From Escherichia phage nepoznato: a stretch of 64,000 nucleotides of DNA. Position numbers and translations under genes: made by a program. Below the pieces are notes generated by a model that worked only from the letters and a program-made list of their open reading frames with translations, was not told the origin of the DNA and did no database searches. The stretch lies in sequence record NC_052658.1. One strand, 5' to 3'. Positions 1,345 to 37,518 of the stretch are shown in pieces. Within the stretch, counting starts at the first letter, position 1; every line of letters begins with the position of its first letter.

Positions 1345-1352
1345 TAAAACTT

Positions 1353-4499: not shown

Positions 4500-4512
4500 C
4501 TTAGGAGGTTTC

Positions 4513-4704
4513 ATGGTTACATATTTTGCTGTAGGAGATAGAGTAGGGACGGCAGGAGAACTGTTGAAGAACAGTGATCGGGACGTTAAGGAGATTCTTG
4601 CAACCCTTGTGGATATTTTACAAAGAAAAGAGTTGCTTTCTGATCGAGATGTTGCTAAATTACTTGATATCGGAGGAGATGAACTTCAAAGACTTCCATT
4701 TTAA
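4513..4704 (+). CDS. Hypothetical small protein
   Basis: ATG at 4513 preceded by AGGAGG (4503-4508); 63 aa; no motif. Confidence 0.4.
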   Translation: MVTYFAVGDRVGTAGELLKNSDRDVKEILATLVDILQRKELLSDRDVAKLLDIGGDELQRLPF

Positions 4705-4719
4705 GTGAGGAGATAAGTA

Positions 4720-5325: not shown

Positions 5326-5326
5326 T

Positions 5327-5983
5327 ATGACTATTAAACATATCTCTTTTGATGTATGGAACACACTGATCACAGCAAACTCCAATTACGCAGACATGCG
5401 AGCCTGGACTATCGCAAAATATGGAGATATTACGGAAGTGGAAGCAAGAGCAGCTTATAAGAAGATCAAAAAGGAACTGGATAATGCAGCACTTCAAGGC
5501 AAAGCCGAGTGTGCAGCATACGCCTGGGAAAGACTTGGTTCTGAACTTGGGATAACACCTTGGAAGTCTGCAAAGCTTCGTTTCGAGTGTGAACAGTGGT
5601 TCCTTAAGTTTCCACCACACGTAGCCGTGGATCTGCCGATGTACTTGCTGTATCTTTCGGGACGTTATGATTTGAGTATTAAGAGCAATACCAACTTTAT
5701 ATCAGGGGATATCCTGCGTCGTGCTTGTAAGTTTGATAGTTGGAATTGTTTTGAGTTCACCCATTTCTCGGATGAAGCTTTACTTTGTAAACCAGATCCG
5801 CGATTCTTTGCTCGCACGCTCACATATTCTCCGATCCCTCTGTTAGGGCACGAAGTATTGCACGTAGGCGATAGTGAAGAATATGATGGAAAATGTGTTG
5901 ACTTAGGATTTAACTTCTGTCATATTAAGAACCCTAACGACTTACTAGAGAAACTTAAAAGAGGAGAAATTGTAAATGCGTAA
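5327..5983 (+). CDS. HAD-superfamily hydrolase-like protein
   Basis: N-terminal ISFDVWNTLI (haloacid-dehalogenase-type DxYGT-like motif I variant) and C-terminal HVGDSEEYDG (motif IV-like). Confidence 0.5.
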   Translation: MTIKHISFDVWNTLITANSNYADMRAWTIAKYGDITEVEARAAYKKIKKELDNAALQGKAECAAYAWERLGSELGITPWKSAKLRFECEQWFLKFPPHVAVDLPMYLLYLSGRYDLSIKSNTNFISGDILRRACKFDSWNCFEFTHFSDEALLCKPDPRFFARTLTYSPIPLLGHEVLHVGDSEEYDGKCVDLGFNFCHIKNPNDLLEKLKRGEIVNA

Positions 5984-6803
5984 TCAAACTCAAATTTTTG
6001 CAAATAAATTTGATGACCTGGAAACTGCTACTTTTGATATCCAAGATTATTCAAAATTGAAATTTGGTAGTAACCAAGCCGCGCGTCGTATGGGTAAAGA
6101 ATTGGCACTTCAGTTTTTTGCTCAAGTGGCAATGAAACATATTGGGGAACAATTTGTTATCATTCCTTCTCCTTACAACCATGTGCATAATGCTGCAACA
6201 ATGATGACAGATCATTTTATTAATTACTTTAACATGTTGCAATCACAATATAATCAAGGTCGTTCAGCAGAACTGGACATTATTCATCGTAAAGTTAGCT
6301 ATATCAACGATTATGGTTTCTTGGATAAAGCTAGTCGTAAGAAACTTATTGATGGGGATACATTCTACTGCAACAAAGAATTCTGGGGTGATAAGAAGCT
6401 TGTATTCATTGATGATGTAAATATCACTGGAACGCATGAAGACAAACTGATTGAGATTCTTGATGAAAATCAAGTTAAAAATGATGTTTACTTCCTGTAT
6501 TTTGCAAAATATGAAGGTAATCAAGCAGATACCGAAGCTAAACTGAATTTTAACTACATTAATACACCAGAAGCGTTTGTTAAAATGATTAATGAAGAAC
6601 GTGATGCACAGTGTCTTGTTCGTCCTATTAAATATCTTATGGGCCAAAATCATGAAGACTTCAAAATCATTCTTAGCCAATTGCCACACTACTATGTAGA
6701 GCAACTTTTCTTCGGCTGTTTAGCTGAAGGCTACAATCGAATTGCAAAGTATACTGAAAACTTTGAATTCTTGGATCGTTACACAAAACAACACATTCTG
6801 TAA
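5976..6803 (+). CDS. Phosphoribosyltransferase (PRTase)-like protein
   Basis: KKLVFIDDVNITGT resembles the type I PRTase PRPP-binding loop; GAGGAG SD; start overlaps the end of the HAD-like gene. Confidence 0.5.
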   Translation: MRNQTQIFANKFDDLETATFDIQDYSKLKFGSNQAARRMGKELALQFFAQVAMKHIGEQFVIIPSPYNHVHNAATMMTDHFINYFNMLQSQYNQGRSAELDIIHRKVSYINDYGFLDKASRKKLIDGDTFYCNKEFWGDKKLVFIDDVNITGTHEDKLIEILDENQVKNDVYFLYFAKYEGNQADTEAKLNFNYINTPEAFVKMINEERDAQCLVRPIKYLMGQNHEDFKIILSQLPHYYVEQLFFGCLAEGYNRIAKYTENFEFLDRYTKQHIL

Positions 6804-6817
6804 TAAGGAGCTAAAAA

Positions 6818-7291
6818 ATGCTTAAAATGAAAACAGGTAATCTTATTGATGCCGCTAAAGCAGGTGAAGTAACTGTTATTGCTCATTGTTGCAATTGTAT
6901 GTGTAATATGGGGGCAGGAATTGCTCCGCAAATTAAACGAGCATTCCCTTATGCATATGCGGCGGATTTAGACACAATGGCTGGTGATCAGAGTAAGTTA
7001 GGTTCTTTTAGTTTAGGGGTGCCAGACGAACAATCAGACCCTTTGGTATATAATCTATACGGGCAATACCGTTACGGATATAATGCTAAAGGTCGTCAGT
7101 TGGACTATGATGCCCTATACGATGCACTAATAGCTATGGCTAATGATTTGCTTCTCCGTGACCAAAAATGTAAGATCGGTTTACCTATGATTGGAGCGGG
7201 ACATGCCGGAGGTAATTGGGCTATCATCCAAGTGATGATTGAAGAAACTTTAGTAAAAACAGGTCACGATGTGACTATTTATAAACTTTAA
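6818..7291 (+). CDS. Macro-domain (ADP-ribose-binding/processing) protein, divergent
   Basis: VTVIAHCCNCMCNMGAGIAPQI aligns with the macro VxNAAN..LxGGGGVDGAI region; LPMIGAGHAGGNWAII aligns with the second macro motif; 157 aa. Confidence 0.55.
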   Translation: MLKMKTGNLIDAAKAGEVTVIAHCCNCMCNMGAGIAPQIKRAFPYAYAADLDTMAGDQSKLGSFSLGVPDEQSDPLVYNLYGQYRYGYNAKGRQLDYDALYDALIAMANDLLLRDQKCKIGLPMIGAGHAGGNWAIIQVMIEETLVKTGHDVTIYKL

Positions 7292-7303
7292 GAGGAGATT
7301 AGT

Positions 7304-7525
7304 ATGGGTGTTTTTGCAGGTATTGTTGCAGTGGTAAGCTTTTTTGTTATTGCTTTTATGCTTAGTTTGATTCCAGCTTGGTTACTGTTGCTGGCTTACA
7401 ACTATGTTGCTGAAGTTATGGGTCATGCAGATATCACTGTCCCAGTAACCTTCTGGACCGTGGTTTGTGTTTCGTTTATTCTGGCTGTATTACGAGGAAT
7501 CTTTTCCTCTCATTCAACAAAATAA
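7304..7525 (+). CDS. Small membrane protein (two predicted TM helices)
   Basis: AGAGGAG SD; hydrophobic segments FAGIVAVVSFFVIAFMLSLIPAWLLLLAY and TVVCVSFILAVL. Confidence 0.5.
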   Translation: MGVFAGIVAVVSFFVIAFMLSLIPAWLLLLAYNYVAEVMGHADITVPVTFWTVVCVSFILAVLRGIFSSHSTK

Positions 7526-7528
7526 GTG

Positions 7529-7557
7529 TTGACATAGTTCTTAAAAAGAGTAAGATA
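7529..7557 (+). promoter_or_regulatory. Sigma70-like promoter upstream of terC
   Basis: TTGACA at 7529-7534, 16-17 nt spacer, TAAGAT -10-like hexamer; followed by a leader hairpin GCGGGGA/TCCCCGC (7569-7587) before the SD. Confidence 0.45.
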
Positions 7558-7604
7558 TATCACATGAAGCGGGGAATAGTTCCCCGCAAAGAGAGGAGAA
7601 AAGA

Positions 7605-8579
7605 ATGCAACTCGGTTTCCCAATTATTGATGTAGTTGTTTTAGTTGGTATTTTGGCATTGTCTATTGGTATCGATTTCTTTGGTCATAAAGAGAATAAA
7701 GAAATTGGAATTAAATCTGCTTTGCTTTGGTCTATTTTTTGGATTGCTTTAGCTTTAGGATATTACGCATTCATTTGGGTAGAACATGGTAAAGAGTTTG
7801 CCGCGCTTTTCCTAAGTGGCTATGTGTTGGAAAAGAGTCTTTCTGTAGATAACCTGATGGTGTTCATGGCAATTTTTGCAAGCTTTGGAATTAAGAGCAC
7901 ACATCTCCAACATAAGATTTTACTTTGGGGGATTGCAGGAGCCATTGTCTTCCGAGGTATTTTTGTTGCAGCAGGCACCGCTTTGTTTAACCTTCATTGG
8001 TCGGTACAAGTGTTGTTCGGTTTGATTGTAGCTTGGTCTGCCGTAGCTATCATCAAAGGTGGTGACGAAGAAGAGGATATTGATTACTCTAAGCATTGGG
8101 CTGTTCGTTTAGTAGGTAAAGTTCTGCCTGTGCACAATGCACTGGATGGTGAAAAGTTCATTACCATTAAGAATGGTATTAAATATGCAACTCCTGCTCT
8201 TCTTTGTGTGTTTGTTATTGAGCTTACAGATATTGTCTTCTCTTTTGATTCAGTTCCGGCTGTGATCGGTGTGACACAAGAACCTCTGCTGGTTTATTCT
8301 GCAATGCTGATGGCTGTTCTTGGTTTACGTGCGCTTTTCTTTGTGTTAAGTGTAGCTGTGAAATATCTGGTTCACTTAGAGAAAGCTGTTGCTGTGGTTC
8401 TGGTGTTTGTTGGTGTTAAACTTATGTATCACCCGTTCGGTGAAACACTTCATGCCAAGTGGTCATTCCTCCCGCATGATATTTCCCCTAACGTAAGTCT
8501 GATGATTGTTCTAGGCACATTAGCTCTTGGTGTTATTGCAAGCTTTATCTTCCCTGAAAAAGAAGAAGCTGCTGTTTAA
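7605..8579 (+). CDS. terC: TerC-family integral membrane protein
   Basis: Multi-pass membrane protein with the TerC signature EKSLSVDNLMVF and a second SFDSVPAV segment; 324 aa. Confidence 0.8.
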   Translation: MQLGFPIIDVVVLVGILALSIGIDFFGHKENKEIGIKSALLWSIFWIALALGYYAFIWVEHGKEFAALFLSGYVLEKSLSVDNLMVFMAIFASFGIKSTHLQHKILLWGIAGAIVFRGIFVAAGTALFNLHWSVQVLFGLIVAWSAVAIIKGGDEEEDIDYSKHWAVRLVGKVLPVHNALDGEKFITIKNGIKYATPALLCVFVIELTDIVFSFDSVPAVIGVTQEPLLVYSAMLMAVLGLRALFFVLSVAVKYLVHLEKAVAVVLVFVGVKLMYHPFGETLHAKWSFLPHDISPNVSLMIVLGTLALGVIASFIFPEKEEAAV

Positions 8580-8585
8580 TAGATG

Positions 8586-8610
8586 AGCCTCCTTCGGGAG
8601 GCTATTTTAT
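8586..8610 (+). terminator. Rho-independent terminator after terC
   Basis: Hairpin AGCCTCC-TTCG-GGAGGCT followed by ATTTTAT. Confidence 0.65.
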
Positions 8611-8621
8611 AGGAGAGACTT

Positions 8622-22278: not shown

Positions 22279-23073
22279 TTGAGCAAGTTGAACACACTTG
22301 ATCAATATTACACTAACCCCGCTTATGCGGGGTTCTTATGTGATAAGATCAAAGAAATTTTTGGAGAGGAAGCTAACTACGTAGAACCATCTGCGGGAGA
22401 AGGGGCTTTCTCTTCTTGTTTTAAAAACATAACTTCTTTTGATATTGACCCTAAGTTTGAAGATTGTATTGAGGCAGATTTTTTAGCTCAATCTGTTGAG
22501 TCTGTTGGCAGTGTAACTGCTTTTGTCGGTAATCCTCCGTTTGGAAAAAATGCTAGTCTTGCCATTAAGTTCTTTAACCATTGTGCTGAAATGTTGGATA
22601 ACGAAGGTGGTATTTGTTTTATCTTGCCTCGCACATTTCAAAAAATCTTTTTTGCACACAAACTAAATCCCCACATGCATCTTCTTTACGAAGAAGAATG
22701 TCCAAAAGGATCTTTTATTCTTCATGGAGAACCTTGGGATGTTCCTTGTGTATTCCAGATATGGATTAAACGCAACGAGAAGCGTTCTCCCGTTGTTTTA
22801 GGAGAAAATCGACTATTCGTATTAGGCAACAGTAAAGACTACGACATAGCCGTTAGGAGAGCGGGAGCAAGTGCAGGTAAAGTGTTATCAGAAGAGGATT
22901 CTTTATCTGAAGCATCTACCTATTTTTTAAAAGCCTTGACTTCTGATCTTAAAACGCGTATCATTGAGGCTTACCCGTTACTTAAAGCTGAAGCTAGTAA
23001 AACTGCGGGAGTAAGAAGTTTAAGTTTAAAAGAACTTCAGTGGGTTCTGGAGAACATTAGAAAGGAGGAATAG
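22279..23073 (+). CDS. N6-adenine DNA methyltransferase (NPPF motif)
   Basis: Motif I-like EPSAGEGAF and motif IV GNPPFG; TTG start with AAGGAGG SD. Confidence 0.6.
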   Translation: MSKLNTLDQYYTNPAYAGFLCDKIKEIFGEEANYVEPSAGEGAFSSCFKNITSFDIDPKFEDCIEADFLAQSVESVGSVTAFVGNPPFGKNASLAIKFFNHCAEMLDNEGGICFILPRTFQKIFFAHKLNPHMHLLYEEECPKGSFILHGEPWDVPCVFQIWIKRNEKRSPVVLGENRLFVLGNSKDYDIAVRRAGASAGKVLSEEDSLSEASTYFLKALTSDLKTRIIEAYPLLKAEASKTAGVRSLSLKELQWVLENIRKEE

Positions 23074-26000
23074 TGAGTAAGTTTACATGGGATATTGAAG
23101 CAAACGGATTGTTGAATAATGATACTATTGATTATTTAGCTAGTCCTTATCGTCTCAAAGACACATTTCAAATGCACTGTATTGTCTTAGAGAACCATGA
23201 AACAGGAGAAATAGTAGCTTTCCACGATGGCCCTAAATACATTTTTGATGGTCGTCCTTATGAAGAGTCAGATGATAAATATACATATGTTCTTAAAGAA
23301 TATGTGGCGCAAGATTACACACATTTTCAACTAAAAGATTTCCCAGATTTTATTAATCATGAAGGTTATTTTAAAGACAAGCCTGAATATTTGGTTGAAA
23401 TGGCTGTGGCACACAACGGTATCAACTATGACTGGTTGGCTACAAAACTGTTTTATGGATTAGATTACAGTGTTAAATATAACACGTGGGGTAAAAGCAA
23501 GGTAAAACTTATTGACTCCTTAATTTTGAGTAAAGTGTTAAACCCAGATCGAAAGATTGAGGGCAAATCAGGACATAGTTTGGCAGCACTTTCTCGAAAG
23601 GCAGGCGGGGATGTAAAAATAGATTTCCGTAAAGAGATTCCAGAAGAAGATCGATTTAAGACTTTTGCTGCGGATATGCTTTATTACTGTATCTATGATA
23701 ACAAAGCCAACACAAGTGTATATAATTACCTCATGGAAGAATGGGGTGATTATGATAAATGGGAAGGTCCATTTGAACTTGAACAACGTGTAGCAGACAT
23801 TATCACGCGCCAGGAACACCGTGGGTTTGCTTTTAACATGAAGCAAGCAGAAGAGAACCTTGCTTTTTTGGATGCAGAAATGGAACGTCTTCGTTTACTC
23901 GTTGAGCCTATTTTGCCACCTAAACCAGCAACAAAAGGTTATCTTAAAGCTTTTATTCCGCCTAAATTGCAAATTAAAAAGAACCTCGAACCAACTAACC
24001 ATATGATCAATTTTGCTAAAAAACATGATGGTCATTTGGAAGAGAGGGATGGCGATTGGTGGTTAGTTATGTTGGGGAAAGAGTGGAAACTGCCAGTTGC
24101 AGCAGATGAGCCTTTGTGTGATCCTAATATCCCTGCAACATTGAACGATACAACCCATATTAAAAACTGGCTTGTAGGATTAGGTTGGGTACCGTCTGAA
24201 TATAAAGATAAAGACTTGACTCTTAAATCTGGCACCAAGATTAAAAAGAGTGAGGAAGAACTTCAGAAAGGTATTCGAGCTTACATTGAGCAAACTCTAT
24301 CTTCTAATTTTTGTCAGGATCGTTGTGATCATCTGGAGTGCACACCGGAAACCTTGGAAAGGAAGATTCAAGAGCGTATAGCAAAAGGTAAAGGTCGCGG
24401 TCTTAAAGTATTGACTAACCCATGTTTTACCAAAGGTCAGGAAAAAGAAATTTGTCCTAACCTGCAAGCTTTGGGTGAGAAATTTCCTTATGCTACACAG
24501 ATTGTAGAATACTTAACGTATAAACACCGTAGGAACTCTATTTTAGGTGGTGGTGCCGATTGGGAAGAAGACGAAGAAGATCAAGAATACAACAAAGGTT
24601 TCTTGGCAGCAGTTCGTGCAGATGGACGTATACCTACGCCAGCGGCTACATGCGATGCAGCAACCTCTCGTATGAAGCATAGGTCTGTAGCCAATATTCC
24701 TCGTGTTACCTCTTTGTTTGGATGGCAGATGCGTAACCTGTTTGGTGTAGAGGTTCCTAAATACTTCCAGATTGGTTATGACTTTGATTCATTAGAGGCG
24801 AAGATTGAGTCGCATTATACGTGGAGATATGATAATCCTGATCATGCTTACTGTAATGCACTTCTGTTAGAAAAACCAAACGATGTGCATACTATGATGG
24901 CAAAACATATTACTGATATTATTGGACGTAAGTTTGAACGTGGTCCTGCTAAGAGCGTTAAATACGGTTGTGTACCTGTAGATAATACGGAAGTGTTAAC
25001 AAGAACGGGTTGGAAGAAACGTAAAGATCTTTTTGTAGGGGATGAAGTTTTATCTTATAATACTCACACCGCTCTTTACGAATATACCCCTATTCTTAAG
25101 CTGTGGGACTATAACGATGCAGAAGTTGTCTCTCTCGGTAACAAGTGGTTCAAAGTAGAAGTTACTAACGATCATATGTGGATTAACGCACAGAGAAAAA
25201 CTATGCGATCAGATGGTAACAATGTTAAGTATATGCAAGTGGAGCGTAGATCTACAGAGGATTTAAACTCGGAGTCAAACATAATTGCAGCAGGGCGATC
25301 TGGTGTGGTGTCTACTCTAACAGTGGAAGAAGGTCGTTTCTTAGGCTGGCTTCTTTCGGATGGCTACTATAAGTGGTCTGGCAAAGCCAGAAATAAAGTA
25401 ATGGGTATTACAGTCACGGTAGATCAAGATGAGAAAAAATTCTTAGAAGAAGCACGTGAGGCTGTGGGAGATATCTTCACATTTGACGAGTATGTATCTG
25501 GAACGATGCATTCATTACGTCCTAATAAGAGTCAGTTTAGGGAATTTTTGACTAAATGTGGCGTTGAAGTGGGTCAAAATAAGCACGAAGTGGACTGGTC
25601 TACATTAATTGCTAATCAAGGTCAAGCTGTGTTGGAAGCATTCTTAGAGGCATTCTGGATGGCAGATGGTCATAAGCGTCCAAACGGCAGTCTTGTTATC
25701 CGTCAAAAGAAAGGTAAGATTAGCGACGCTGTTTCTTTGGCTATCAATATGACAGGTAATATTGCGTATGGTTCTGTTCAAAAAGATGGCATGTTAACGT
25801 TGGCAATCAATAACGGACAAACTATTTCAGGACAGAGGTTGACAAAAGCTTTTTCACGAGTAACAGATGTATTCTGTATCTCAACCAAGAATGAATCTTT
25901 TGTTATGCGTCAGAATGGTTTTATCACGTTGACAGGTAACTGCACGTACGGCGCTCAAGCAGACAAGGTTGCTAAAACAATTGGTAGCGATAAATACACA

Positions 26001-26642
26001 GGGCAACTGGTGTTCGATGCTTTCTGGGAAGCTGCATTCCCACTGGCGCGTCTTAAAGAACGTTTAAACGATTTCTGGGTTAAGACTGGTAAACAGTATG
26101 TTTTGGGTATTGACGGTCGTAAGGTTCCTACTCGTTCTGCTCACGCGATTCTTAACTCTCTGTTCCAAAGTGGTGGGGTTATCTGTGCTAAACGTGCAAT
26201 GGTTATTTATGACGACATGATCGAAGAAGAAGGGCTAAGTGTTGACTTCTTTAAAGATGACTGGAAGAATAAAGACTTCGTGCAACAAATGATTGCATAT
26301 CACGATGAAGCCCAGCTTGAAGTTTCTCGTAGCCTTGTAGAATTTAAATGGTTTTCACCTGAATCATTAGGTTGGAAGAAAGTAGACGATCCTGAAGAAC
26401 AAAAGAAAATTGATAAAGAATGCCTTGCTAAAGTTGAAGAATGGAAGCATAATAAGGAAAAAGAGACAGGGCAAATTTGGGCTAACATTCATGAATCTCC
26501 CAAAGGTGGATGGTTTACAGCCTATAGTCGGGCAGGTGAACTTGCTGCTTTAGCTGTTACTAAGGCTGGAGAATTTTACAATCTTAATGTTCAGCTTACT
26601 GCCGGATATGATGTGGGTAACTCCTGGGCGAGCTGCCATTAG
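23073..26642 (+). CDS. Family A DNA polymerase with 3'-5' exonuclease, interrupted by an in-frame intein
   Basis: Exo I WDIEANGL; Pol A motif A IGYDFDSLEAKI; motif B RGPAKSVKYG|[intein]|CTYGAQADKVAKTIG; motif C YHDEAQLEV; GTG start with AAAGGAGG SD. Confidence 0.8.
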   Translation: MSKFTWDIEANGLLNNDTIDYLASPYRLKDTFQMHCIVLENHETGEIVAFHDGPKYIFDGRPYEESDDKYTYVLKEYVAQDYTHFQLKDFPDFINHEGYFKDKPEYLVEMAVAHNGINYDWLATKLFYGLDYSVKYNTWGKSKVKLIDSLILSKVLNPDRKIEGKSGHSLAALSRKAGGDVKIDFRKEIPEEDRFKTFAADMLYYCIYDNKANTSVYNYLMEEWGDYDKWEGPFELEQRVADIITRQEHRGFAFNMKQAEENLAFLDAEMERLRLLVEPILPPKPATKGYLKAFIPPKLQIKKNLEPTNHMINFAKKHDGHLEERDGDWWLVMLGKEWKLPVAADEPLCDPNIPATLNDTTHIKNWLVGLGWVPSEYKDKDLTLKSGTKIKKSEEELQKGIRAYIEQTLSSNFCQDRCDHLECTPETLERKIQERIAKGKGRGLKVLTNPCFTKGQEKEICPNLQALGEKFPYATQIVEYLTYKHRRNSILGGGADWEEDEEDQEYNKGFLAAVRADGRIPTPAATCDAATSRMKHRSVANIPRVTSLFGWQMRNLFGVEVPKYFQIGYDFDSLEAKIESHYTWRYDNPDHAYCNALLLEKPNDVHTMMAKHITDIIGRKFERGPAKSVKYGCVPVDNTEVLTRTGWKKRKDLFVGDEVLSYNTHTALYEYTPILKLWDYNDAEVVSLGNKWFKVEVTNDHMWINAQRKTMRSDGNNVKYMQVERRSTEDLNSESNIIAAGRSGVVSTLTVEEGRFLGWLLSDGYYKWSGKARNKVMGITVTVDQDEKKFLEEAREAVGDIFTFDEYVSGTMHSLRPNKSQFREFLTKCGVEVGQNKHEVDWSTLIANQGQAVLEAFLEAFWMADGHKRPNGSLVIRQKKGKISDAVSLAINMTGNIAYGSVQKDGMLTLAINNGQTISGQRLTKAFSRVTDVFCISTKNESFVMRQNGFITLTGNCTYGAQADKVAKTIGSDKYTGQLVFDAFWEAAFPLARLKERLNDFWVKTGKQYVLGIDGRKVPTRSAHAILNSLFQSGGVICAKRAMVIYDDMIEEEGLSVDFFKDDWKNKDFVQQMIAYHDEAQLEVSRSLVEFKWFSPESLGWKKVDDPEEQKKIDKECLAKVEEWKHNKEKETGQIWANIHESPKGGWFTAYSRAGELAALAVTKAGEFYNLNVQLTAGYDVGNSWASCH
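24969..25940 (+). mobile_element. Intein (324 aa) with a LAGLIDADG-type homing endonuclease domain, inserted in Pol A motif B
   Basis: Begins with Cys (CVPVDNTEVLTRTG), block B TNDHMW, LAGLIDADG-like LGWLLSDGYY and EAFWMADGHK, ends ...FITLTGN followed by extein Cys; removal rejoins KYG + CTYGA into a canonical motif B. Confidence 0.7.
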
Positions 26643-28318: not shown

Positions 28319-29206
28319 ATGTCCATAATTAATACTGAAACTGATCGTAAAGGCAAAACCGTAACTTATGCAACTGGTATCGTAGACTACGTTAAACTGG
28401 ATAAATTCGCTGAACCTAAAACTTTTCATTGGGAAGGAAAAACGATTGTTTCAACTCACCGAGCTTCTCTTGTTCTGAAAGAGAAAGGTGCTAAACCAGA
28501 GGAGAAAGGTGTTTGGATTTCTCTTGGTGATATTGAACTGAAAGAAGGTTATGAAAACCTGCAAGTTAAAGAAGGTGATAACTGGATCACTATTGAAAAA
28601 GGTGTAGAAGTAAGTATTGATATTGATCGCGTTGACAATAAAGGCGGTAAAACTTACTACAATACTAAAAAATCTCGTATTACAGTATTGTCTACCGATG
28701 GTGTTCAGAAGTCTAACAAATCTTCTGGCAATAAGGGTTCCAACGATGCTGCTCCTAAACAGTCCTATAAAAAACGTGATACTGTAGGTCTGGAAACTGG
28801 TCACGCAGTAAATGGTGCGCTGGAACTGATTCGTAATGGTGTTAAAGGCGATGCTTTTGATATCGCTGGGGTTGTTCAATCTGCGACTGTCACGTTGAAA
28901 TCGGAAATTGCTGAATCTCGTGGCGTTGATATTAATGATTATGATCTTGGGGCAGCTGTTGGTCACGCTATTCTCAATGCTTGTAAAGACCATACCATTA
29001 AGACTGTCTCTGTAGAAGATCTGATTGATTCTGCTCGTAAAGTTCTGGCTCTGTCTGATAAAGTTGCTGCTGCCATTCGTGGTTCCGCAGAACAACCTAA
29101 GAAAGAAGAGAAGAAAGAAGTTAAAAAGCCTGAACCACAACCAGAACCAACTCCAAGCAATCAAGAAGAACCTCCAATGGACTTCGATGATAATATTCCT
29201 TTTTGA
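28319..29206 (+). CDS. ssb: Single-stranded DNA-binding protein with an E. coli-type acidic C-terminal tip
   Basis: C-terminus ...NQEEPPMDFDDNIPF is nearly identical to the E. coli SSB tip ...EPPMDFDDDIPF; flexible G/S/K linker before the tail; host-optimised codon usage. Confidence 0.65.
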   Translation: MSIINTETDRKGKTVTYATGIVDYVKLDKFAEPKTFHWEGKTIVSTHRASLVLKEKGAKPEEKGVWISLGDIELKEGYENLQVKEGDNWITIEKGVEVSIDIDRVDNKGGKTYYNTKKSRITVLSTDGVQKSNKSSGNKGSNDAAPKQSYKKRDTVGLETGHAVNGALELIRNGVKGDAFDIAGVVQSATVTLKSEIAESRGVDINDYDLGAAVGHAILNACKDHTIKTVSVEDLIDSARKVLALSDKVAAAIRGSAEQPKKEEKKEVKKPEPQPEPTPSNQEEPPMDFDDNIPF

Positions 29207-29634
29207 TCAGTAAGTTATGCTCGTGTTGTGGGGCTGAAAAGCCCCTCAACATGTTCCAAGTAAGGAAGGCTTCTAAAGATGGCTATACGGCATCCTGTAA
29301 AGCTTGCTTAAAAGAACGTGACCGTATACGAGATCAAGACCCTAATCGTAAAGCAGCAAAAGAAAAGTATGTAAAGGGAAAAGGAAAGGATAAAGCAGAC
29401 GCGGCTAAAAAACGTTGGCAAGAAAAGAATCCCAAGAAGCGTAGTGTTCACGTTTTAGTTGGCAACGCACTCCGAGATGGAAAGTTAGTAAAACAACCTT
29501 GCCAAGTGTGTGGGTCTGTTGATGTTCATGCTCATCATTGTGATTATGATAAACCGTTAGATGTTCTATGGCTGTGTCCTCTGCACCATGAAGCTTGGCA
29601 TCAAGAACATGGGGAAGGGTTGAACGCTGAATAA
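29203..29634 (+). CDS. HNH endonuclease-like protein (free-standing)
   Basis: C-terminal HAHHCDYDKPLDVLWLCPLHHEAWH (HNH zinc-finger type); start uncertain (TTG 29203 or ATG 29251); a GGGGC/GCCCC hairpin lies at 29228-29243. Confidence 0.55.
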   Translation: MISKLCSCCGAEKPLNMFQVRKASKDGYTASCKACLKERDRIRDQDPNRKAAKEKYVKGKGKDKADAAKKRWQEKNPKKRSVHVLVGNALRDGKLVKQPCQVCGSVDVHAHHCDYDKPLDVLWLCPLHHEAWHQEHGEGLNAE

Positions 29635-29636: not shown

Positions 29637-29668
29637 GAAAGGAGCCAAATGGCTCCTTTTCTTATTTA
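29637..29668. terminator. Bidirectional terminator between the convergent early and structural blocks
   Basis: 10-bp stem GAAAGGAGCC/GGCTCCTTT(T) with loop AAAT, T-runs on both strands; lies where the plus HNH gene and the minus fibre gene converge. Confidence 0.6.
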
Positions 29669-32334
29669 TAATTGGAAGGAATGTTGTTATAATCAGAAAG
29701 TTTTGTGCAATACCTGAATAGGTAACTATTAGCTACTCCGCCTAATGTATTTGTTAATGTTGTTCCTGTTCCTGTAAGATTTGTGCATCCACTAAAGAAA
29801 GAAGATAATGCTCCACGTTTACCACAAACAGTTAACCCTGGGTTGTCATTAAAGATCTTATTAAAATCTGTAAGTCCTAAACAACCTTGGAATGTAGCTG
29901 TTAAAGAGGTCACTTTCGTTGGAATATTATCAAACATTCCTGCTGGAACTTCTGCAAGAGAGGTGCAATCTTTAAAGGTGTAAGAATATCTTGTAACTTT
30001 TGACAGATTCTTAAATAAATCTGAAGGAATAGATGTTAAAGATGTACAACCTTCAAACGTGCTTGACATTGTTGTCATTGAAGGAAATAAAGCATCACTG
30101 AATAATCCTTCAGGGATAGCTGTCAAACTTGTGCAGCCAGAGAAGATACCGCTTATAGATGTTCCGGTGTAAGATGTGTTACTAAAACAATCAGAAGTTA
30201 TTCGTCTTAAGTTAGCACAACCTTTTAAGAATTGTGAGGCTGGGCTTGTAGAATAACTAATTCTATTACCGCCCCAAAGTTCTAAAAGACTTTGGTTTGC
30301 TTCCATAGACACTTCCACACTATTAACTACGGAAGCACTTGCAAATTCAATAGCCAGTCTGTATTCTCCTGCTGGATAACTATCCACTGTAGAGAAAGCT
30401 TTGTTTCTAAATATTACCTTACTTGAAGGAACTACAACGTCATCCACCTTAACTACAAAGTTAGCTGGTGCGACAGTACCCGATAAAGTTGGGAACGTAA
30501 TCGCCCCATCTGCCGAGTGGTTGAAATATCCGTTTAGAACCGTTAAACTACTACTCGGAGATGGAGCTAACTCCTTTCCCGCAACAGCGTTCACCGTTAA
30601 ATAAGAACTATCAGAAGCGGTAACAACACCTTGATACGTAGCTGTGCAACCAATCCTACAACCACCATCACCAACACCAGTTATTACACCAGTTGTAGGA
30701 TCTACTGTAGCAACATTAGGATCTGTAGTTGTATACTCAACAACCATACCAGGTAAGCTTGCTGCTCCTGTTGGCGTTATTTCTGCTACTATTGTTTGTG
30801 TTGTTCCTACATCCATCGCAGATAAGCTAGGGGTGTAAACGCTCAATGTTGAAGCATATCCTCTAGAGGTATCTGATAAAGTTGTTCCTTCAGCGTTTAA
30901 GGCTGTCATACCTGCATCAAAACCACCTTCTGCTTGGAAAGTCATTAAGCCAGTAGATGATATTGTCATGTTTGCAGGGGCAGAAGAAGTGTATTTAATA
31001 TTGAAAAGTTTACCTCCTTCTGGGCTAACAGAATGTGTCAACTGTTTAGTTCCACCTACAATACAAATTCCTAAAGAATCTGTAGTTAAGCTAGTTGCCA
31101 GCACATCACCCGTAATCACGGAGCTTGCTATTGGTGTGAATTTATTATAGTTTAGACCACTATTGAACAGATATGACGCTTTCCCATCTTTCCAAATACC
31201 GGAATAATACATATCTCCATTATAAACGAAAAAGGTTCCTTGATAACCTAATTGGTTAGTAACATCCATATTCAGCGTATGAACGCTTGTGAGCTTGTTT
31301 ATATCCCAGGCACCCACTCCTTCAGGTTTAACTGGTTTTCCCACTTGGAGTGGATCTCCGCTCGCAGAATCATACCCCAAACCTAAGTTTGCCGTATAGT
31401 TCTTACCAATAGCCCACAAGGAATTATTAATCCCAACGAAAAAAGAGTGGCGGCTTGGTGGAAACTTCCATGTTGAGAAACCTGCTGCAAAGGTATCCAG
31501 TTTAGTGTAGGTTGTTTCTGTATTAGACCTAACATATAAGTAGTTTACTGTACCCGTGCCGCCGGAGGTATCTCCTACAACTATTGTCTGGGAAACTGTA
31601 TTGATGTAATCTTTGACATACACTGTTTCAGTAGCGGATATTTTGGCATTGACAAAAGCTGTTGTTGTGTTATTATTACCTGCTAAACCTTTACTAGCTC
31701 CACAAACACGCAAGGTTCCCACATTGTTGACATAAGAGCATTGGTTGTAGCCTGCATCAAAAGCAACTGCTGCACTTGTTATCTGACGAGGAGTAGAAAC
31801 TTCGTTAGTAGTACTTGCACCTAAACTGCCTACTGTGTTTTGACCTGATCCATAAAGAACACCACTATTCATTAACCAGAGAGTGTTGTTATATCCTCCC
31901 TTAACCTCTTTAAGATTGGCTAAAGAGATAGTCCCTGTTATTACAGATGGAAAGCTGGTCCAAGTAGTTACACATGCATCCATACCACCTGCTGCTATAG
32001 ATCCTACCAACCCTGCTGTCAATCCTGAATATTGCCATCCCCCACTGTTAGTTTTAATAACAAAACAACGATCTGCGGTAAACACATCCGCTACTACAGT
32101 AGAAGCTAAGTGGAAATTATTGAATCGTGCACTACGAGTTCCATCTGCAATCTCACCAAAAAGGTTTGCGCCTTGAGTAAACAATCTACCATCATTAAGC
32201 AAAATTGCTAAACTGCTATTAGAATTACCAGCATTATCTGGGTAATCTAAAGTGATTACTTTTTTAACAATACCTGCTGGCAGAGGAACGACACCAGTGC
32301 TGGTCATAATAGTAAATATTGGAATTGGAAACAT
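29662..32334 (-). CDS. Tail fibre / receptor-binding protein with C-terminal BspA-type leucine-rich repeats
   Basis: 890 aa; repeated F-x-x-C-T-x-L-T-x-I/P units near the C-terminus (FSGCTSLTAIPEGLFSD, FEGCTSLTSIPSDLFKN, FKDCTSLAEVPAGMFDN, FQGCLGLTDF, FSGCTNLTG); GGAGGG SD. Confidence 0.55.
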   Translation of the reverse strand: MFPIPIFTIMTSTGVVPLPAGIVKKVITLDYPDNAGNSNSSLAILLNDGRLFTQGANLFGEIADGTRSARFNNFHLASTVVADVFTADRCFVIKTNSGGWQYSGLTAGLVGSIAAGGMDACVTTWTSFPSVITGTISLANLKEVKGGYNNTLWLMNSGVLYGSGQNTVGSLGASTTNEVSTPRQITSAAVAFDAGYNQCSYVNNVGTLRVCGASKGLAGNNNTTTAFVNAKISATETVYVKDYINTVSQTIVVGDTSGGTGTVNYLYVRSNTETTYTKLDTFAAGFSTWKFPPSRHSFFVGINNSLWAIGKNYTANLGLGYDSASGDPLQVGKPVKPEGVGAWDINKLTSVHTLNMDVTNQLGYQGTFFVYNGDMYYSGIWKDGKASYLFNSGLNYNKFTPIASSVITGDVLATSLTTDSLGICIVGGTKQLTHSVSPEGGKLFNIKYTSSAPANMTISSTGLMTFQAEGGFDAGMTALNAEGTTLSDTSRGYASTLSVYTPSLSAMDVGTTQTIVAEITPTGAASLPGMVVEYTTTDPNVATVDPTTGVITGVGDGGCRIGCTATYQGVVTASDSSYLTVNAVAGKELAPSPSSSLTVLNGYFNHSADGAITFPTLSGTVAPANFVVKVDDVVVPSSKVIFRNKAFSTVDSYPAGEYRLAIEFASASVVNSVEVSMEANQSLLELWGGNRISYSTSPASQFLKGCANLRRITSDCFSNTSYTGTSISGIFSGCTSLTAIPEGLFSDALFPSMTTMSSTFEGCTSLTSIPSDLFKNLSKVTRYSYTFKDCTSLAEVPAGMFDNIPTKVTSLTATFQGCLGLTDFNKIFNDNPGLTVCGKRGALSSFFSGCTNLTGTGTTLTNTLGGVANSYLFRYCTKLSDYNNIPSNYK

Positions 32335-32345
32335 TTAAACCCTCC

Positions 32346-32372
32346 ATAAAAAGAAAGCCCCTTTCGGGGCTT
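32346..32372 (-). terminator. Rho-independent terminator (minus strand) after the collagen-like fibre gene
   Basis: Minus-strand hairpin GAAGCCCCGAAAGGGGCTTTC followed by TTTTTAT. Confidence 0.5.
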
Positions 32373-32375
32373 CTG

Positions 32376-34400
32376 TTATCGTGTTACAACAACCATGTCC
32401 ACGATATTACCCACACCAGGATACGTTAATTGCAAAATTGTTACTGCGTTGGCAGTAGTTGCTATTTCTGTATCATTCAGTGCTCCATAAGACGCATCTA
32501 GTGTAACCGTGTGTCCCGTTGTATCTTGAATCAAATAAATCATTGCTGAAAACGCTTTAGGCTTTGTAGAGCCAGTGACACCAGGCCATGCTCCAACTGT
32601 TAAAGCATCGGTTACTGTAACAACATACATATTGGAAGTTCCAGAAGGAGTCCAAGATGCTCCAGAGTTGGCAGTAGTTGTTTCAAGTTCCATGAAACCT
32701 GCTGTAACTCTAGTTGGTGTTATAGCTTCCGTAGGATCTGATCCTGATATTTCAATCCAGTTTCCATCAGAACGACCATAAGTCAAGCCGTCTTGAGGGG
32801 CTTCTGGTATACTAGGAAGAGTTCCTATAAGTGTCCACGTAGAAGAATCTGTTTTCTTAAATACTGCTCCAGTGGTAGTATTGAAGGCGTAATCATTGAT
32901 AACACCGTCTCCTGCGACTGGATTAGTTGTTGCTACAAACCACTGTGCGCCGTCCTTACCGTTGGCCCCATCAGTACCGTTGGTTCCGTTTGTTCCAGGA
33001 TCACCCTTATCTCCTTTATCCCCTTTTTCACCTTTGTCGCCCTTAATACTTCCCATGTCAACAAAAGATGCGGAATTGGTGTCTTGATCGTAGGTATAGA
33101 TGTAAAGATTACTGGTATCCTCAGTTAAGTAGGCATCACCATAGTTATTATAAACAGGGAGAGCTTCTCCGTTTGCAACATGACCTTTAGCTGTAATAGA
33201 TCTGCCTCCCAAACTGCCTACATTGAGCCAAGTTTGGTTGTCATCAATCCACACATAAAGTTCATTTTTTATGATGTAGGCATCACCGACCTCCGCTACA
33301 GAGGGTAACTCTGAAACATCTGCCAATTCTCCGTTTACAGAAAGACCTGCACCAACTGGACCTTGGATACCTTGAACACCCTGTTCACCTTGTGGACCAG
33401 GATCTCCCTTCTCGCCCTTGTCTCCCTTTTCACCTTTTAAAGCAGCAACAAAATCTACTTCTGTCCCTTCATTACCAGCGTCCAGCCAACTTTGATATGC
33501 AGATTTCCCTTCGTCTCCATCTGTTCCATCTAGACCGTCTTTACCTGCCTCACCTTGTGGACCTTGAGGACCAACAATATTACCCATGTTGACCCAAGCT
33601 GTCCCATTAGAGACATAAAGATTACCATTAATAGAATAAGCTTGGCTTACGTTTTCAGAGTTAGGTTGTGGTAAGTTACTTGTAGAAGGCAAATCTCCAC
33701 GGTAATCAAAACCATTAGCGTTGACACCAGGTGCACCCTGTGGACCTGTAGGACCAACGTCTCCTTTATCACCTTTTATAGAGGCAAGAAAGTCATAAAC
33801 AGATCCTGTATTACCATCTGCCAACCATACCTCGTAAGCTGATTTCCCTTCTGGTCCAAGAGAAGAAATAAGTTTCCAAACAGAACCGTCCCAAGCGTAA
33901 ATCACATCACCTACGATATAACCATCCCCTGCAACGTTACCTGTAGATGGTAGTTCACTAGTGCTTGCTAATGATCCTTTAATATTAAGTTGAGCACCAG
34001 TATCCCCTTTCAAAGAAGCAAGCCATTGTGCTTCTGTTCCAACAAAACCATTATCAAGTGCGATCTGATAAGCCGATTTACCAGCTTCAGGTATTGCTTC
34101 TGACAAATCATCGATCTGTTGTTGCACTGCCGTAAACTTGGCATTGATAATTGCTATATCATCAGCAGTCCCAACACTTTGCCATGCAAGGGAAGAAATA
34201 CCACCTGTGGTGGCTGGCGTAGAGTTTGCTGGAACTACTTTAGGAAAAGTTCCTTTCCATTGGTAATAATTCCCTTCTGCCGCTAACAGCAAAACTTCAC
34301 GGGAATTACGTAATGTAAAACCTGCCTCAAAACTGCGACGTTTTCGATAAGTAGCTTCTACCAGATCGGCTATCGCACTATTAGGTCTTGTTAAATTCAT
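32376..34400 (-). CDS. Tail fibre protein with collagen-like Gly-X-Y repeats
   Basis: Runs of GEKGDKGEKGDPGPQGEQGVQGIQGPVG and GDKGEKGDKGDKGDPGTNGTNGTDGANGKDG. Confidence 0.65.
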   Translation of the reverse strand: MNLTRPNSAIADLVEATYRKRRSFEAGFTLRNSREVLLLAAEGNYYQWKGTFPKVVPANSTPATTGGISSLAWQSVGTADDIAIINAKFTAVQQQIDDLSEAIPEAGKSAYQIALDNGFVGTEAQWLASLKGDTGAQLNIKGSLASTSELPSTGNVAGDGYIVGDVIYAWDGSVWKLISSLGPEGKSAYEVWLADGNTGSVYDFLASIKGDKGDVGPTGPQGAPGVNANGFDYRGDLPSTSNLPQPNSENVSQAYSINGNLYVSNGTAWVNMGNIVGPQGPQGEAGKDGLDGTDGDEGKSAYQSWLDAGNEGTEVDFVAALKGEKGDKGEKGDPGPQGEQGVQGIQGPVGAGLSVNGELADVSELPSVAEVGDAYIIKNELYVWIDDNQTWLNVGSLGGRSITAKGHVANGEALPVYNNYGDAYLTEDTSNLYIYTYDQDTNSASFVDMGSIKGDKGEKGDKGDKGDPGTNGTNGTDGANGKDGAQWFVATTNPVAGDGVINDYAFNTTTGAVFKKTDSSTWTLIGTLPSIPEAPQDGLTYGRSDGNWIEISGSDPTEAITPTRVTAGFMELETTTANSGASWTPSGTSNMYVVTVTDALTVGAWPGVTGSTKPKAFSAMIYLIQDTTGHTVTLDASYGALNDTEIATTANAVTILQLTYPGVGNIVDMVVVTR

Positions 34401-34464: not shown

Positions 34465-37400
34465 TTAGGTTGTTGGCACATCTACCACTGGTGTTGGGCG
34501 AATAACCGCAGTATTACCTACAGAAACATTACTAGAATCGTTAGGTATGGTTTTGATTCTAACTCCAGCACTCGTAGGCGTTACAATTGGATCTGCAATG
34601 TCTATTTTAACTGGGTTAGTCCACGTATCATTATCTTGATAAGGTGCACGAGTGATAACTGTGTCCAAATCTGCTCCACCTACACCAGCACCAGGAATAC
34701 GGATACGTGTTCCTGCTGACAGAGGATAGTGATACAACCAAGAAGCGTTTGTTGCTGTCCCATTAGGAGTCAAGTTCTGGGTCAGGAAGGTATCTCCTGC
34801 TTGTGTAGCTCGAATACCGAAAGCTGGGATATCTGGAATGTATGCCCCACTTGTTGTTACAAGGAAGAACGTATTATCCGCTTTGACTATCATATCCCCT
34901 TTGTCAAACTCCTTCCCTGTTGGGAAATGCATCCCATCAATGTTTCGGCTAGGGTTAGGCTCTAAGTAATAAACTTTGCCAGTTGTCCCTACAATAGCTC
35001 CAATACCACCTGCGATATTGGTATACATATTAGCTTCAACATTACAGTTGACACGATGAATATCCGAGTAACGGCAACGGCTCCACTGTGGACGACCAGT
35101 AACCATCGTCTTGCCATCTGGGTAACAGTTTACGTTAACCATCTCAAGAACAGATTTTTCTCTACGGAAGAATCCATCATAAAATGTCCCTGGACCAGAT
35201 TCAGGTTGACCAACACAATCGAAGATATTACAGGTGATGTTAGACATTGAAAGCCAAGAAGCTATACCGAACAACTGCAATGCGGCGCAACGAATATTTT
35301 CAAAGCTAACTCTGTTTTCATAACCTGGCCCAGCGGAAACTCCCGCAAAAACACGCCCAGTTTTGGTGTGAATGTTACGAACAGAATAGTTAAAGCATGG
35401 ATTTGAAGGTCTACCCTGTGCCGGAACTACCGGATTACCCTCTTCGTCCAGAACTGCGTTAGTTCCCCACTCCAAATAAATCATACGGATATTACTTGCA
35501 AGTGTGCTACCGTCTGTTTTAGGCTCTCCATAAACACCATCAATCGTAAAGTCTTTACTTCCATACATTACAACTGCGCCAGTTGCCAAACCTGTCCCAA
35601 CAGATACAGTTTGGTCTGGATCGCCATGAATGTTTTCGATAGAGATATTACGACCAACTTCTACGTGGACAATCTGACGACAACGTTTTGCAAAAACGTT
35701 ACGAATTGTAATATTCTTGCAATATTGATCATCAGGAATTCCGTAACCATATGGTCCTTTACCAGCTACACCAATACCGATACCCCAGTTGGACAGAGGA
35801 ATAGGAGCGTTAGTCCCATCGATATTAGACAGGTAAATATTCTCAATCACACAACCATCATCATAATGTTTATTGATGACGTTCAGTTCTATTGCATCAC
35901 CTTGCATGTCCATGAAGGTAAGGTTACGGAAGACACCGCGTGTTACTGGTTCCCCTGTTCCTTGTTGAAGGATGCCATATAACCCGTTTTTAAAAGTACA
36001 ATTATCAATTTCAAAAGTACCTGATATTGGGTTGCCTTGGAATACCAAGCTACCAACTTGACCTGCGCGAGGAGCACCGTCCCACAAACAATCGAACATG
36101 CGCACAGCACCACCCCAATACATAACACGAGAGTTACGGAAAGTTGTGCCTTCTACTGTAGCATTTTGCACACGATAGTCACGTTGACCACGGAACACAC
36201 CCCCACGCAAAGTGATACCTTGAATATCAAAAGAGCTTGTCGTGAAAGTCATATCGCAACCGTAAGCATCGAGAATCTTGCTTTTCGAAGCTTTTGCTGC
36301 TAACAGTGCCGCCTGGAAAGCTGCTTCTGGTGTGGTATAGGTAGTTGTATTGTTAGCAAATTCGGACAAGTAGACAACATCGAATAAATCGTTGTATGTT
36401 CCACCACGAGGGGTTAACAGTCCTTCTGTATTGGTCAGAACCCATGCATTTGGACCTAATCCACCGCTTGTCTCCAATGTATCAGAGGCCAAAATACTTT
36501 TTGGTAAACTTCCAGCCCAACGATAACGACCAGCACCACGTCCAATCGTCTGATTTTTAGCTGTCAGAGTTACGTTATTACCAAAGCTTGTAGGCAAATG
36601 AACAAACTGTCCACGTTCAACAGCCAGTGCAGAAAGATCTACGGACCCCCCAGAATAAGTCATTACTCCAGAAACAGATAAGGATGTTAAAGTTCCTGTG
36701 ATGTTAGGAGGTAATGTGTAGGAAGACTGTGCTACTGGATCATACAGAGCTTTAATCCCTGTTAACGATTGACCTGCTGTTGCGTAAGCCACCTCATCAT
36801 CTAACAAACCATATTTACGAGCAATAGTTTGCAGAGGGACTTTATCCATGCTTTCTGTTAGTTCTTCCGTTTTTGTTTCTAAACTAACAAGACGGTTCTC
36901 TAGATTAGGATCTGTATCTGCTGAAGCTACGATTTTACCAATATAAGCAAAAAGCTTGTTTGGTAGTCCTGTTGCAGGATCGTGTCCCAAAGGTTCAGAT
37001 AAAATGATTTTACTATCTTCTATGCGGAAAGCTTCTCCCAGAACCTGAATAACACCATTGATTGTAACAATAGCACTATCAAAGATGTAGGGAGGACTGA
37101 TTACTGTTTCATAACCAGTTGCACCAGAATATACCCAAGGGGTGACTTCTGTTGCTAGTTGTTCTGTCTTCAGTCCCCACAATACCCAGTTGTTATCTCC
37201 TACTGGAGTCCCTTGCATAGGAATTGGGTTTACCAGCGTAGCATTAGGCGCATAGTAATAACCACTCAACACTCCGTTCTGGAAATAACGAAGTTGGTTA
37301 AAAACTGTTTCGTTTGTGCCTTGCGCCCAATCTAATGGACTTTTAAAGAAAAAGTTGTCAACAAGGGCTTTTCTCAGGGTTGGTATCAACCCTGATTCTG

Positions 37401-37518
37401 TTTCAATACTCTCTGTAGCACTTCCATTAATAACATCATGGAGTTGGTTAGACGAGAAAATAACCAGATCTACGCCCTGTTCGAGAGACGTTGCTGGATA
37501 TGTTGGGAATGTTGCCAT
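34465..37518 (-). CDS. Tailspike with right-handed parallel beta-helix (putative polysaccharide depolymerase)
   Basis: 1017 aa; repetitive beta-helix rungs (NCTFKNGLYGILQQG, VFRNLTFMDMQGDAIELNV, ITIRNVFAKRCRQIVHVEVGRNISIENIHG). Confidence 0.55.
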   Translation of the reverse strand: MATFPTYPATSLEQGVDLVIFSSNQLHDVINGSATESIETESGLIPTLRKALVDNFFFKSPLDWAQGTNETVFNQLRYFQNGVLSGYYYAPNATLVNPIPMQGTPVGDNNWVLWGLKTEQLATEVTPWVYSGATGYETVISPPYIFDSAIVTINGVIQVLGEAFRIEDSKIILSEPLGHDPATGLPNKLFAYIGKIVASADTDPNLENRLVSLETKTEELTESMDKVPLQTIARKYGLLDDEVAYATAGQSLTGIKALYDPVAQSSYTLPPNITGTLTSLSVSGVMTYSGGSVDLSALAVERGQFVHLPTSFGNNVTLTAKNQTIGRGAGRYRWAGSLPKSILASDTLETSGGLGPNAWVLTNTEGLLTPRGGTYNDLFDVVYLSEFANNTTTYTTPEAAFQAALLAAKASKSKILDAYGCDMTFTTSSFDIQGITLRGGVFRGQRDYRVQNATVEGTTFRNSRVMYWGGAVRMFDCLWDGAPRAGQVGSLVFQGNPISGTFEIDNCTFKNGLYGILQQGTGEPVTRGVFRNLTFMDMQGDAIELNVINKHYDDGCVIENIYLSNIDGTNAPIPLSNWGIGIGVAGKGPYGYGIPDDQYCKNITIRNVFAKRCRQIVHVEVGRNISIENIHGDPDQTVSVGTGLATGAVVMYGSKDFTIDGVYGEPKTDGSTLASNIRMIYLEWGTNAVLDEEGNPVVPAQGRPSNPCFNYSVRNIHTKTGRVFAGVSAGPGYENRVSFENIRCAALQLFGIASWLSMSNITCNIFDCVGQPESGPGTFYDGFFRREKSVLEMVNVNCYPDGKTMVTGRPQWSRCRYSDIHRVNCNVEANMYTNIAGGIGAIVGTTGKVYYLEPNPSRNIDGMHFPTGKEFDKGDMIVKADNTFFLVTTSGAYIPDIPAFGIRATQAGDTFLTQNLTPNGTATNASWLYHYPLSAGTRIRIPGAGVGGADLDTVITRAPYQDNDTWTNPVKIDIADPIVTPTSAGVRIKTIPNDSSNVSVGNTAVIRPTPVVDVPTT

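Follow-up and report, generated by a model that had tools for sequence, protein, structure and literature searches.

A putative exchangeable leucine-rich repeat cassette at the C-terminus of a tail-cluster protein of a Phapecoctavirus-like phage

Results

We analysed a stretch of 64,000 nucleotides of Escherichia phage nepoznato (sequence record NC_052658.1; hereafter the window), and in particular a gene on its minus strand (29662..32334) that encodes a protein of 890 amino acids (aa) plus the stop codon and ends in leucine-rich repeats (LRRs). The source region is 97-98% identical at the DNA level to the Phapecoctavirus genomes ESCO5, REC, tuntematon and AV125, which are Escherichia coli myophages of about 150 kb in the subfamily Stephanstirmvirinae, and by this similarity the window is that of a Phapecoctavirus-like E. 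coli myophage. The orthologues of the open reading frame (ORF), such as ESCO5 gp226 and phAPEC8 gp086, are annotated as 'tail protein' or 'hypothetical protein', and the 890-aa protein matched phrog_11922, 'tail protein', in the PHROG collection with E = 0. A recent study, on the basis of a Pharokka annotation alone, named it 'TfpM1, 890 or 891 aa' and reported it to be missing from the sister genus Justusliebigvirus (PMC12695924). The gene closes a minus-strand tail/baseplate (tail-fibre) cluster, where it follows two Tail_spike_N proteins, and it is one of the few genes of this cluster that differ among close relatives. A nucleotide search of a phage collection recovered it from 66 phage records.

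The domains of the protein are encoded on the minus strand as follows. Residues 1-400 (31135..32334) form a predicted RCC1-like beta-propeller: Pfam RCC1 scored 24.3 bits against a cut-off of 21.7, an RCC1-like domain was matched with an E value of 1e-10, and the profile of the orthologues matched the propellers of HERC2, UVR8, RCC2 and RPGR. The propeller assignment comes from these sequence profiles; in the AlphaFold2 (AF2) model the same residues are all-beta, with a predicted local distance difference test score (pLDDT) of about 90. Residues 401-588 (30571..31134) correspond to two immunoglobulin (Ig)-like domains of the Big_2 type (31.7 bits against a cut-off of 22.8, in two stretches), and AF2 placed strands there. 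They are followed by a low-confidence linker and a putative beta-sandwich (residues 589-699, 30238..30570), with AF2 strands at residues 598-686 and a pLDDT of 55-90; small relatives have a PKD-like WGDG...HTY sandwich at the equivalent position. The C-terminal residues 700-890 (29665..30237) are assigned to a seven-unit LRR solenoid by motif count, family profile and the AF2 model. The full-length model has a pLDDT of 86.1 and a predicted template modelling score of 0.55, as expected if the domains are arranged like beads on a string.

The initial annotation had described BspA-type repeats of at least five units at 29662-30330, which corresponds to residues 669-890 and the stop codon. The repeats do lie within this span, although the tract proper starts at about residue 700 (30237) rather than at residue 669, and the count turned out to be slightly conservative: the motif [F/L]xxCxxL occurs seven times, at residues 703, 731, 760, 787, 815, 847 and 873 (codon starts at 30228, 30144, 30057, 29976, 29892, 29796 and 29718), with the units starting near residues 700, 728, 757, 784, 812, 844 and 870. 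The spacings are 28, 29, 27, 28, 32 and 26 residues. Six of the seven units have the strict form FxxCxxL, and none of 20,000 shuffles reached six motifs (the maximum was two), whether the shuffled sequence was that of the entire protein or that of its C-terminal 222 residues. Units 2-4 carry the complete signature CTSL(T/A)x(I/V)P, the remaining units (1 and 5-7) being degenerate. Residues 844-890 (29665..29805) comprise the last two of these units and a helical C-terminal cap; the cap reads FFSGCTNLTG...LFRYCTKLSDYNNIPSNYK, its signature CxxLxDYxxIPxx(W/Y)K is common to many small phage LRR proteins, and the AF2 model has helices at residues 824-863. The conserved F and C residues should lie packed inside the solenoid core. 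At the DNA level we found no tandem or direct repeats at the unit period (about 81-84 nt) in the repeat-coding region and no inverted repeats of 14 nt or more, within 100 nt of each other, in 29662-30330. The repeats are thus old and diverged, and a recent duplication or a low-complexity artefact is rejected.

The family to which these repeats belong was examined with profiles. A scan with Pfam LRR_5, which the initial annotation had proposed as a check, gave no match at E <= 1 with either the full protein or its C-terminal 222 aa. The best matches were DUF285 in Pfam and PARCEL in NCBIfam, both sub-threshold; as all scores were below the cut-off, we rejected filing the protein as a member of LRR_5, DUF285 or PARCEL. 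The repeat unit of the TpLRR subfamily has about 23 residues; here an AFxxCxxL-type core is found in seven units, but at a spacing of 26-32 residues. The canonical PARCEL is defined by 25-residue units in strict tandem and by palindromes in the coding DNA (Roeske et al. 2010, PMC2996958); it was also rejected, considering the length of the present units and their coding DNA without palindromes.

The relatives of the module gave a clearer picture. With the C-terminal 222 residues as the query, a word-indexed search retrieved 621 proteins, of which the best 120 listed were mostly 200-390 aa long, many with precomputed DUF285 and/or LRR_5 domains. With phmmer against 1.84 billion cluster representatives, we obtained 18,702 relatives at E <= 1e-3, including 990 at E <= 1e-30. 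The LRR_5 threshold was passed by the relatives P0003 (32.6 bits) and P0028 (30.5 bits) and by a Klebsiella prophage protein (41.3 bits), and many relatives of the module pass the DUF285 threshold. The family has the consensus unit FxxCTSLTSIPxxLFxNxxxVTxF, with a modal spacing of 27 residues and a second mode of 24, and many members share the cap CxxLTG...(L)W...CFxxCTxLxDYxxIPxxWK with the 890-aa protein. The family profile matched solved LRR structures, namely the designed LRR 5a5c (E 1.7e-20), the LRR_5 proteins 4fs7 and 4gt6 from Bacteroides and Faecalibacterium (E about 1e-18) and TpLRR 6mlx (E 6e-5). These matches indicate that the C-terminus is an LRR solenoid, and the model is consistent with this at the level of the fold, since it predicts a solenoid of tandem 20-30-residue units with one short strand each, like that of solved LRRs. 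With profile support and a predicted solenoid both present, the two observations that the initial annotation had named as fatal to it were not made, and its assignment of the C-terminus to LRRs of the BspA/TpLRR kind is upheld by the family profile and the Pfam scores of the relatives. We regard the solenoid as a divergent variant of the TpLRR/BspA-DUF285 branch, with units of 27-28 residues and a cap, lying between the LRR_5 and DUF285 models. Judged by the profiles, it is closest, among solved structures, to the founding member of the TpLRR/BspA subfamily.

To compare the domains among orthologues, we searched with the full protein and obtained 40 relatives; per-domain identities were taken from an alignment of 37 of them. 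All share residues 1-588 and diverge thereafter. The proteins P0128-P0130 are 99% identical to the 890-aa protein in residues 1-400 and only 19-25% identical, at the level of noise, beyond residue 588. In P0124-P0127, the propeller is 75-77% identical, whereas the sandwich and the LRRs are 89-98% identical, and the beta-sandwich (residues 589-699) is co-inherited with the LRRs as the first half of the same unit. This clear per-domain mosaicism shows that residues 589-890 move as one cassette, and by these alignments they are an exchangeable cassette of about 300 residues, with the recombination junction directly after the conserved end of the Big_2 region (...SSYLxVNAV). A conserved proximal part is thus combined with an exchanged distal module, for which we found at least four alternative cassettes and a cassette-less form. 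One alternative cassette, which ends in GLKYYD (P0128-P0130, P0146 and P0158; the C-terminal about 300 aa), matches fibre tips: it is homologous both to the distal two-thirds of gp17, a tail fibre of solved structure (9occ, E 2.6e-17), and to the head-spike fibre Rcc01080 of RcGTA (6tb9, E 5.7e-13). The cassette of P0141 consists of a PKD-like domain and a canonical DUF285 domain (E 1e-42), and that of P0140 is a 250-aa module of unassigned type. P0147-P0155, with 564-573 aa, end after Big_2 and have no cassette. The LRR cassette itself is found at a protein identity of at least 90% in 34 phage records, about half of the 66 with the gene. When the variability per position was compared among 10 orthologues of the same type, no clear hypervariable face was seen.

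The initial annotation had suggested acquisition of the repeats from a bacterial adhesin lineage. We examined their provenance using the contigs of four of the nearest relatives of the module, PHROG scans of the neighbouring genes and matches in BFVD. Each of these four contigs proved to be of phage or prophage context. The gene for P0028 is flanked by a SU10-type capsid gene and a terminase gene, with an integrase gene adjoining; P0007 is beside genes matching tail-fibre PHROGs; P0003 is on a contig of small orphan genes; and P0027 is on a 145-kb metagenomic phage-like contig with several paralogous LRR genes. At 1267-7917 of the last contig, several paralogous repeat proteins (phrog_9915 and phrog_3532) are clustered about P0027, with a resolvase and a TnpB-like (Cas12f1-like_TNB) gene alongside, and this region may be a hotspot for the diversification of LRR genes. 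The LRR subtype is also fused to Tail_P2_I and Big_2 in Klebsiella P2-like prophages, and a metagenomic protein combines DUF2612, which we take to be a phage-associated Pfam family, with Big_2 and LRRs ending in the cap. More distant relatives combine the LRRs with an Mfa-like fimbrillin, with BACON, or with a Listeria-Bacteroides repeat and PKD. The repeat class is therefore one that adhesins and phages have in common, as the earlier suggestion implied, but acquisition from the former is unproven and the nearest contigs read are those of phages or prophages; transfer of the module between adhesins and phages may have gone in either direction.

Regarding the association of the protein with the virion, a tblastn search showed that its first about 195 residues (31750-32334) are 38.7% identical to gp27 of phage rV5, and up to 41.6% identical to the counterparts in other rV5-like phages. 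Like the present gene, that of rV5 gp27 closes a tail-fibre cluster and encodes Big_2 domains, whereas gp27 is far longer (1878 aa) and has a different distal part, in which no LRR is shown. It was detected by mass spectrometry in purified rV5 virions, with three peptides and 3.1% coverage (PMC3606486 Table S5). Residues 1 to about 195 are thus likely to be the virion-attachment part. The position of the gene, the PHROG label and the rV5 homologue are indirect evidence that the 890-aa protein is probably virion-borne. The N-terminal stretch that it has in common with gp27 of rV5-like phages (rV5 gp27 at 4001-8621 of the rV5 locus) may define a shared attachment module.

The gene is preceded by a Shine-Dalgarno sequence GGAGG (32341..32345, minus strand), read in the sequence 6 nt before the ATG, and by a terminator-like hairpin with a T-run (32354..32373, minus strand), which separates it from the upstream collagen-like fibre gene; the phAPEC8 record has a terminator annotated at the equivalent site. 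The two upstream neighbours, both on the minus strand, are this collagen-like fibre (32376-34400, with collagen repeats) and a 1017-aa spike (34465-37518). Both have a Tail_spike_N (TSP1/Gp66) domain, which is used in building branched tailspike complexes.

Downstream, a bidirectional terminator hairpin (29637..29660, given without strand) is common to the LRR gene and a converging ORF of 143 aa (29203-29634, plus strand), which lies between the gene for the single-stranded DNA-binding protein and the 3' end of the LRR gene. The ORF encodes an endonuclease VII/HNH-like endonuclease by its match to phrog_2340 (E 3e-40), with no match in Pfam. It is missing at the equivalent site in ESCO5 and phAPEC8, and is full-length in only a few relatives (AV125 and phiWec188/190), so that it looks like a mobile homing-endonuclease insertion adjoining the exchangeable cassette. 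The idea that its presence tracks the cassette type was rejected: both ZCKP1 and nieznany have the endonuclease, and the match of ZCKP1 to the LRR protein stops at residue 584, so that ZCKP1 has no LRR cassette. Elsewhere in the window, a DNA polymerase ORF (23073-26642, plus strand) has 1189 aa, compared with 1110 aa in its ESCO5 orthologue; its middle part (around ...GCVPVDNTEVLTRTGWKK...) resembles an inserted intein or homing endonuclease, and Pfam gave a sub-threshold DNA_pol_A stretch alone (residues 503-634). We also noted that several near-identical Phapecoctavirus records have been deposited as 'Campylobacter phage', 'Pseudomonas phage', 'Acinetobacter phage' or 'Klebsiella phage'; these labels reflect either an unusually wide host range or mislabelled hosts or lysates.

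Discussion

Our results lead us to propose, as a reading that we consider somewhat better than even, that the 890-aa protein is a modular, probably virion-borne adhesin whose swappable sandwich and LRR cassette binds the E. coli envelope and sets one specificity. In this proposal, the conserved propeller-Ig part (residues 1-588) would attach the protein to the particle, with the baseplate periphery as the probable site, and the sandwich-LRR cassette (residues 589-890) would project outward. The surface of the LRRs would bind a structure of the E. coli envelope, which may be a protein or a glycan; LRRs are known to bind both. The binding would add one host-recognition specificity to a multi-appendage phage that has several fibres and spikes, and replacement of the cassette would change this specificity. 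The analysis shows the repeats, the predicted fold, the order of the domains, the exchange of cassettes and the phage provenance of the nearest relatives with contigs read; the virion location, the host binding and the ligand are inferred, and the support for receptor binding from the exchange of the cassette is indirect.

Several observations weigh against this proposal. The cassette-less orthologues suggest that the module is dispensable for the role of the N-terminal part. None of the three repeat families accepts the protein at its threshold: LRR_5 (PF13306, gathering threshold 27.7 bits) was not reached, DUF285 (PF03382, 25 bits) gave 12.7 bits with the full protein and 15.9 bits (E 0.011) with the C-terminal 222 aa, and PARCEL (TIGR02167, NCBIfam cut-off 30 bits) gave 22 bits (E 1e-4). 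Foldseek against the PDB returned only weak matches (E 7e-3, TM 0.15-0.3). The detection of rV5 gp27 is weak at the coverage mentioned above, and its similarity to the 890-aa protein is confined to the N-terminal module. The hairpin at 32354-32373 suggests a low or modest expression of the LRR gene, although modest expression would fit a low-copy appendage. In the literature, we found no experimental data on the domains or the function of the 890-aa protein and no proteome or structure of a Phapecoctavirus. Finally, among the domains of the protein we recognised neither a trimeric fibre shaft or shaft motif nor a Tail_spike_N or other tail-attachment domain. The protein was originally labelled a tail fibre, and it does belong to the tail cluster, but its propeller, Ig-like, sandwich and LRR domains make up neither a fibrous or spike architecture nor one with a known anchor; 'tail-cluster modular adhesin' is closer to what we found than 'tail fibre'.

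An alternative with a modest chance of being correct, well below that of an envelope-binding adhesin, is that the protein is a decoration of the virion which sticks to mucus glycoproteins, to the biofilm matrix or to other bacteria, and serves retention in a niche instead of selection of the host. Such adhesion has been proposed for Ig-like decorations of capsids. The pairing of Big_2 with LRRs is characteristic of adhesive surface proteins, fimbrillin and BACON proteins of gut Bacteroidales contain relatives of the module, one alternative cassette resembles the head-spike fibre 6tb9, and the cassette-less orthologues would make the cassette an accessory. On the other hand, the gene is in the tail-fibre cluster and not in the head module, other phages have baseplate proteins with the module as a fusion partner, and swaps of a cassette among near-identical phages are the usual signature of a determinant of host range. 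We think it rather unlikely that the LRRs are an internal docking surface for another phage protein, for example a Tail_spike_N fibre, in a branched appendage and make no contact with the host. LRRs are established as general scaffolds for protein-protein interactions, the neighbouring genes encode a multi-fibre complex with Tail_spike_N domains, and the 890-aa protein is without a known anchor; however, a docking surface should be conserved and should co-vary with its partner, whereas the cassette is swapped for unrelated folds or absent beside otherwise the same neighbour genes, and the conserved N-terminus would be the better candidate for docking.

A role outside the virion appears slightly less probable still. 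The protein would then be a late product with its effect within or outside the infected cell, for instance on a host factor bound via the propeller and the LRRs; RCC1-like propellers and LRRs are frequent in intracellular proteins, the upstream terminator-like hairpin sets the gene apart from its cluster, and the label 'tail protein' comes from annotation by similarity alone. Yet rV5 gp27 with the same N-terminal module was found in virions, alternative cassettes are similar to the tips of tail fibres, and Big_2 is common in extracellular or virion-surface proteins ('structural protein with Ig domain', major tail proteins). These three alternatives are less consistent with the exchange of cassettes and the baseplate fusions than is a host-binding adhesin. 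That the repeat pattern is due to chance or composition, or that the ORF is not a real gene, has next to no probability: apart from the sub-threshold Pfam scores, nothing speaks for it, and it is refuted by the shuffles (0/20,000), the 66 phage records, the 18,702 related clusters, the confident structure model, and the strong ribosome-binding site and terminator.

The protein can be compared with several known systems. From the LRR_5 proteins of the TpLRR and BspA kind (Treponema pallidum TpLRR, 6mlx; BACOVA_04585, 4fs7; Tannerella forsythia BspA), it differs in its unit of 26-32 and not 23 residues, in having its own C-terminal cap (...DYxxIPxxW/YK) and no LRR_5 match, and in its context, as the repeats end a phage protein without a signal peptide or cell anchor. 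DUF285/PARCEL proteins (PF03382, TIGR02167; for example LppQ of Mycoplasma) have a similar MFxxCxxL...VTxM periodicity, and orthologues such as P0141 have a cassette with canonical DUF285 at the corresponding position, but the scores of the 890-aa protein are sub-threshold, and the strict 25-residue tandem and the palindromic DNA motif are absent. The 'tail protein' QBP07953 of a Klebsiella P2-like prophage (Reipivirus ST16-OXA48phi5.4, 3547-6573) likewise has an anchor, an Ig-like domain and C-terminal LRRs of the same subtype (33% identity over 87% of the query). Unlike the present protein, it has 1008 aa and many more repeats, passes the LRR_5 and DUF285 thresholds, and is anchored by the baseplate wedge protein gpI (Tail_P2_I) instead of an RCC1-like propeller; it is experimentally uncharacterised likewise. 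The layout of anchor, Ig-like domain and LRRs thus recurs in an unrelated phage lineage. In receptor-binding proteins with swappable tips, such as gp17 of 9occ and the RcGTA head spike 6tb9, a conserved N-terminus is also combined with an exchanged C-terminal module, whereas these are trimeric fibres or spikes and the 890-aa protein has the domain make-up expected of a monomeric multi-domain adhesin.

Phage LRR proteins are already widely annotated and their family is huge, so that the 890-aa protein is not the first of its kind. In the literature, we found no link of this protein or of the genus Phapecoctavirus to LRRs and no experimentally characterised LRR-type receptor-binding module of a phage; a related mention concerns DUF285/BspA genes of a Vibrio jumbo phage, as a table-level annotation only. 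Phapecoctaviruses, for which no receptors are known, have some of the broadest host ranges among the E. coli phages under consideration for biocontrol and therapy (PMC10844046). We put forward, as a tentative and rather doubtful generalisation, that capped LRRs with 27-residue units are a widespread and as yet uncharacterised class of non-fibrous, probably monomeric receptor-binding modules of phages, which are interchangeable with fibre tips and shared with fimbrial tip adhesins of Bacteroidales. The cassette of Phapecoctavirus would then be specific for one receptor of the envelope, which may be a protein that the LRR face binds, and this would explain part of the unusually broad and variable host range of these phages. 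As a self-contained, swappable unit of 300 residues, the sandwich and LRR cassette offers a concrete handle for engineering the host range and for the search for receptors. For a module family of about 18,700 clusters, with baseplate fusions in several lineages, a culturable E. coli phage would provide a convenient model.

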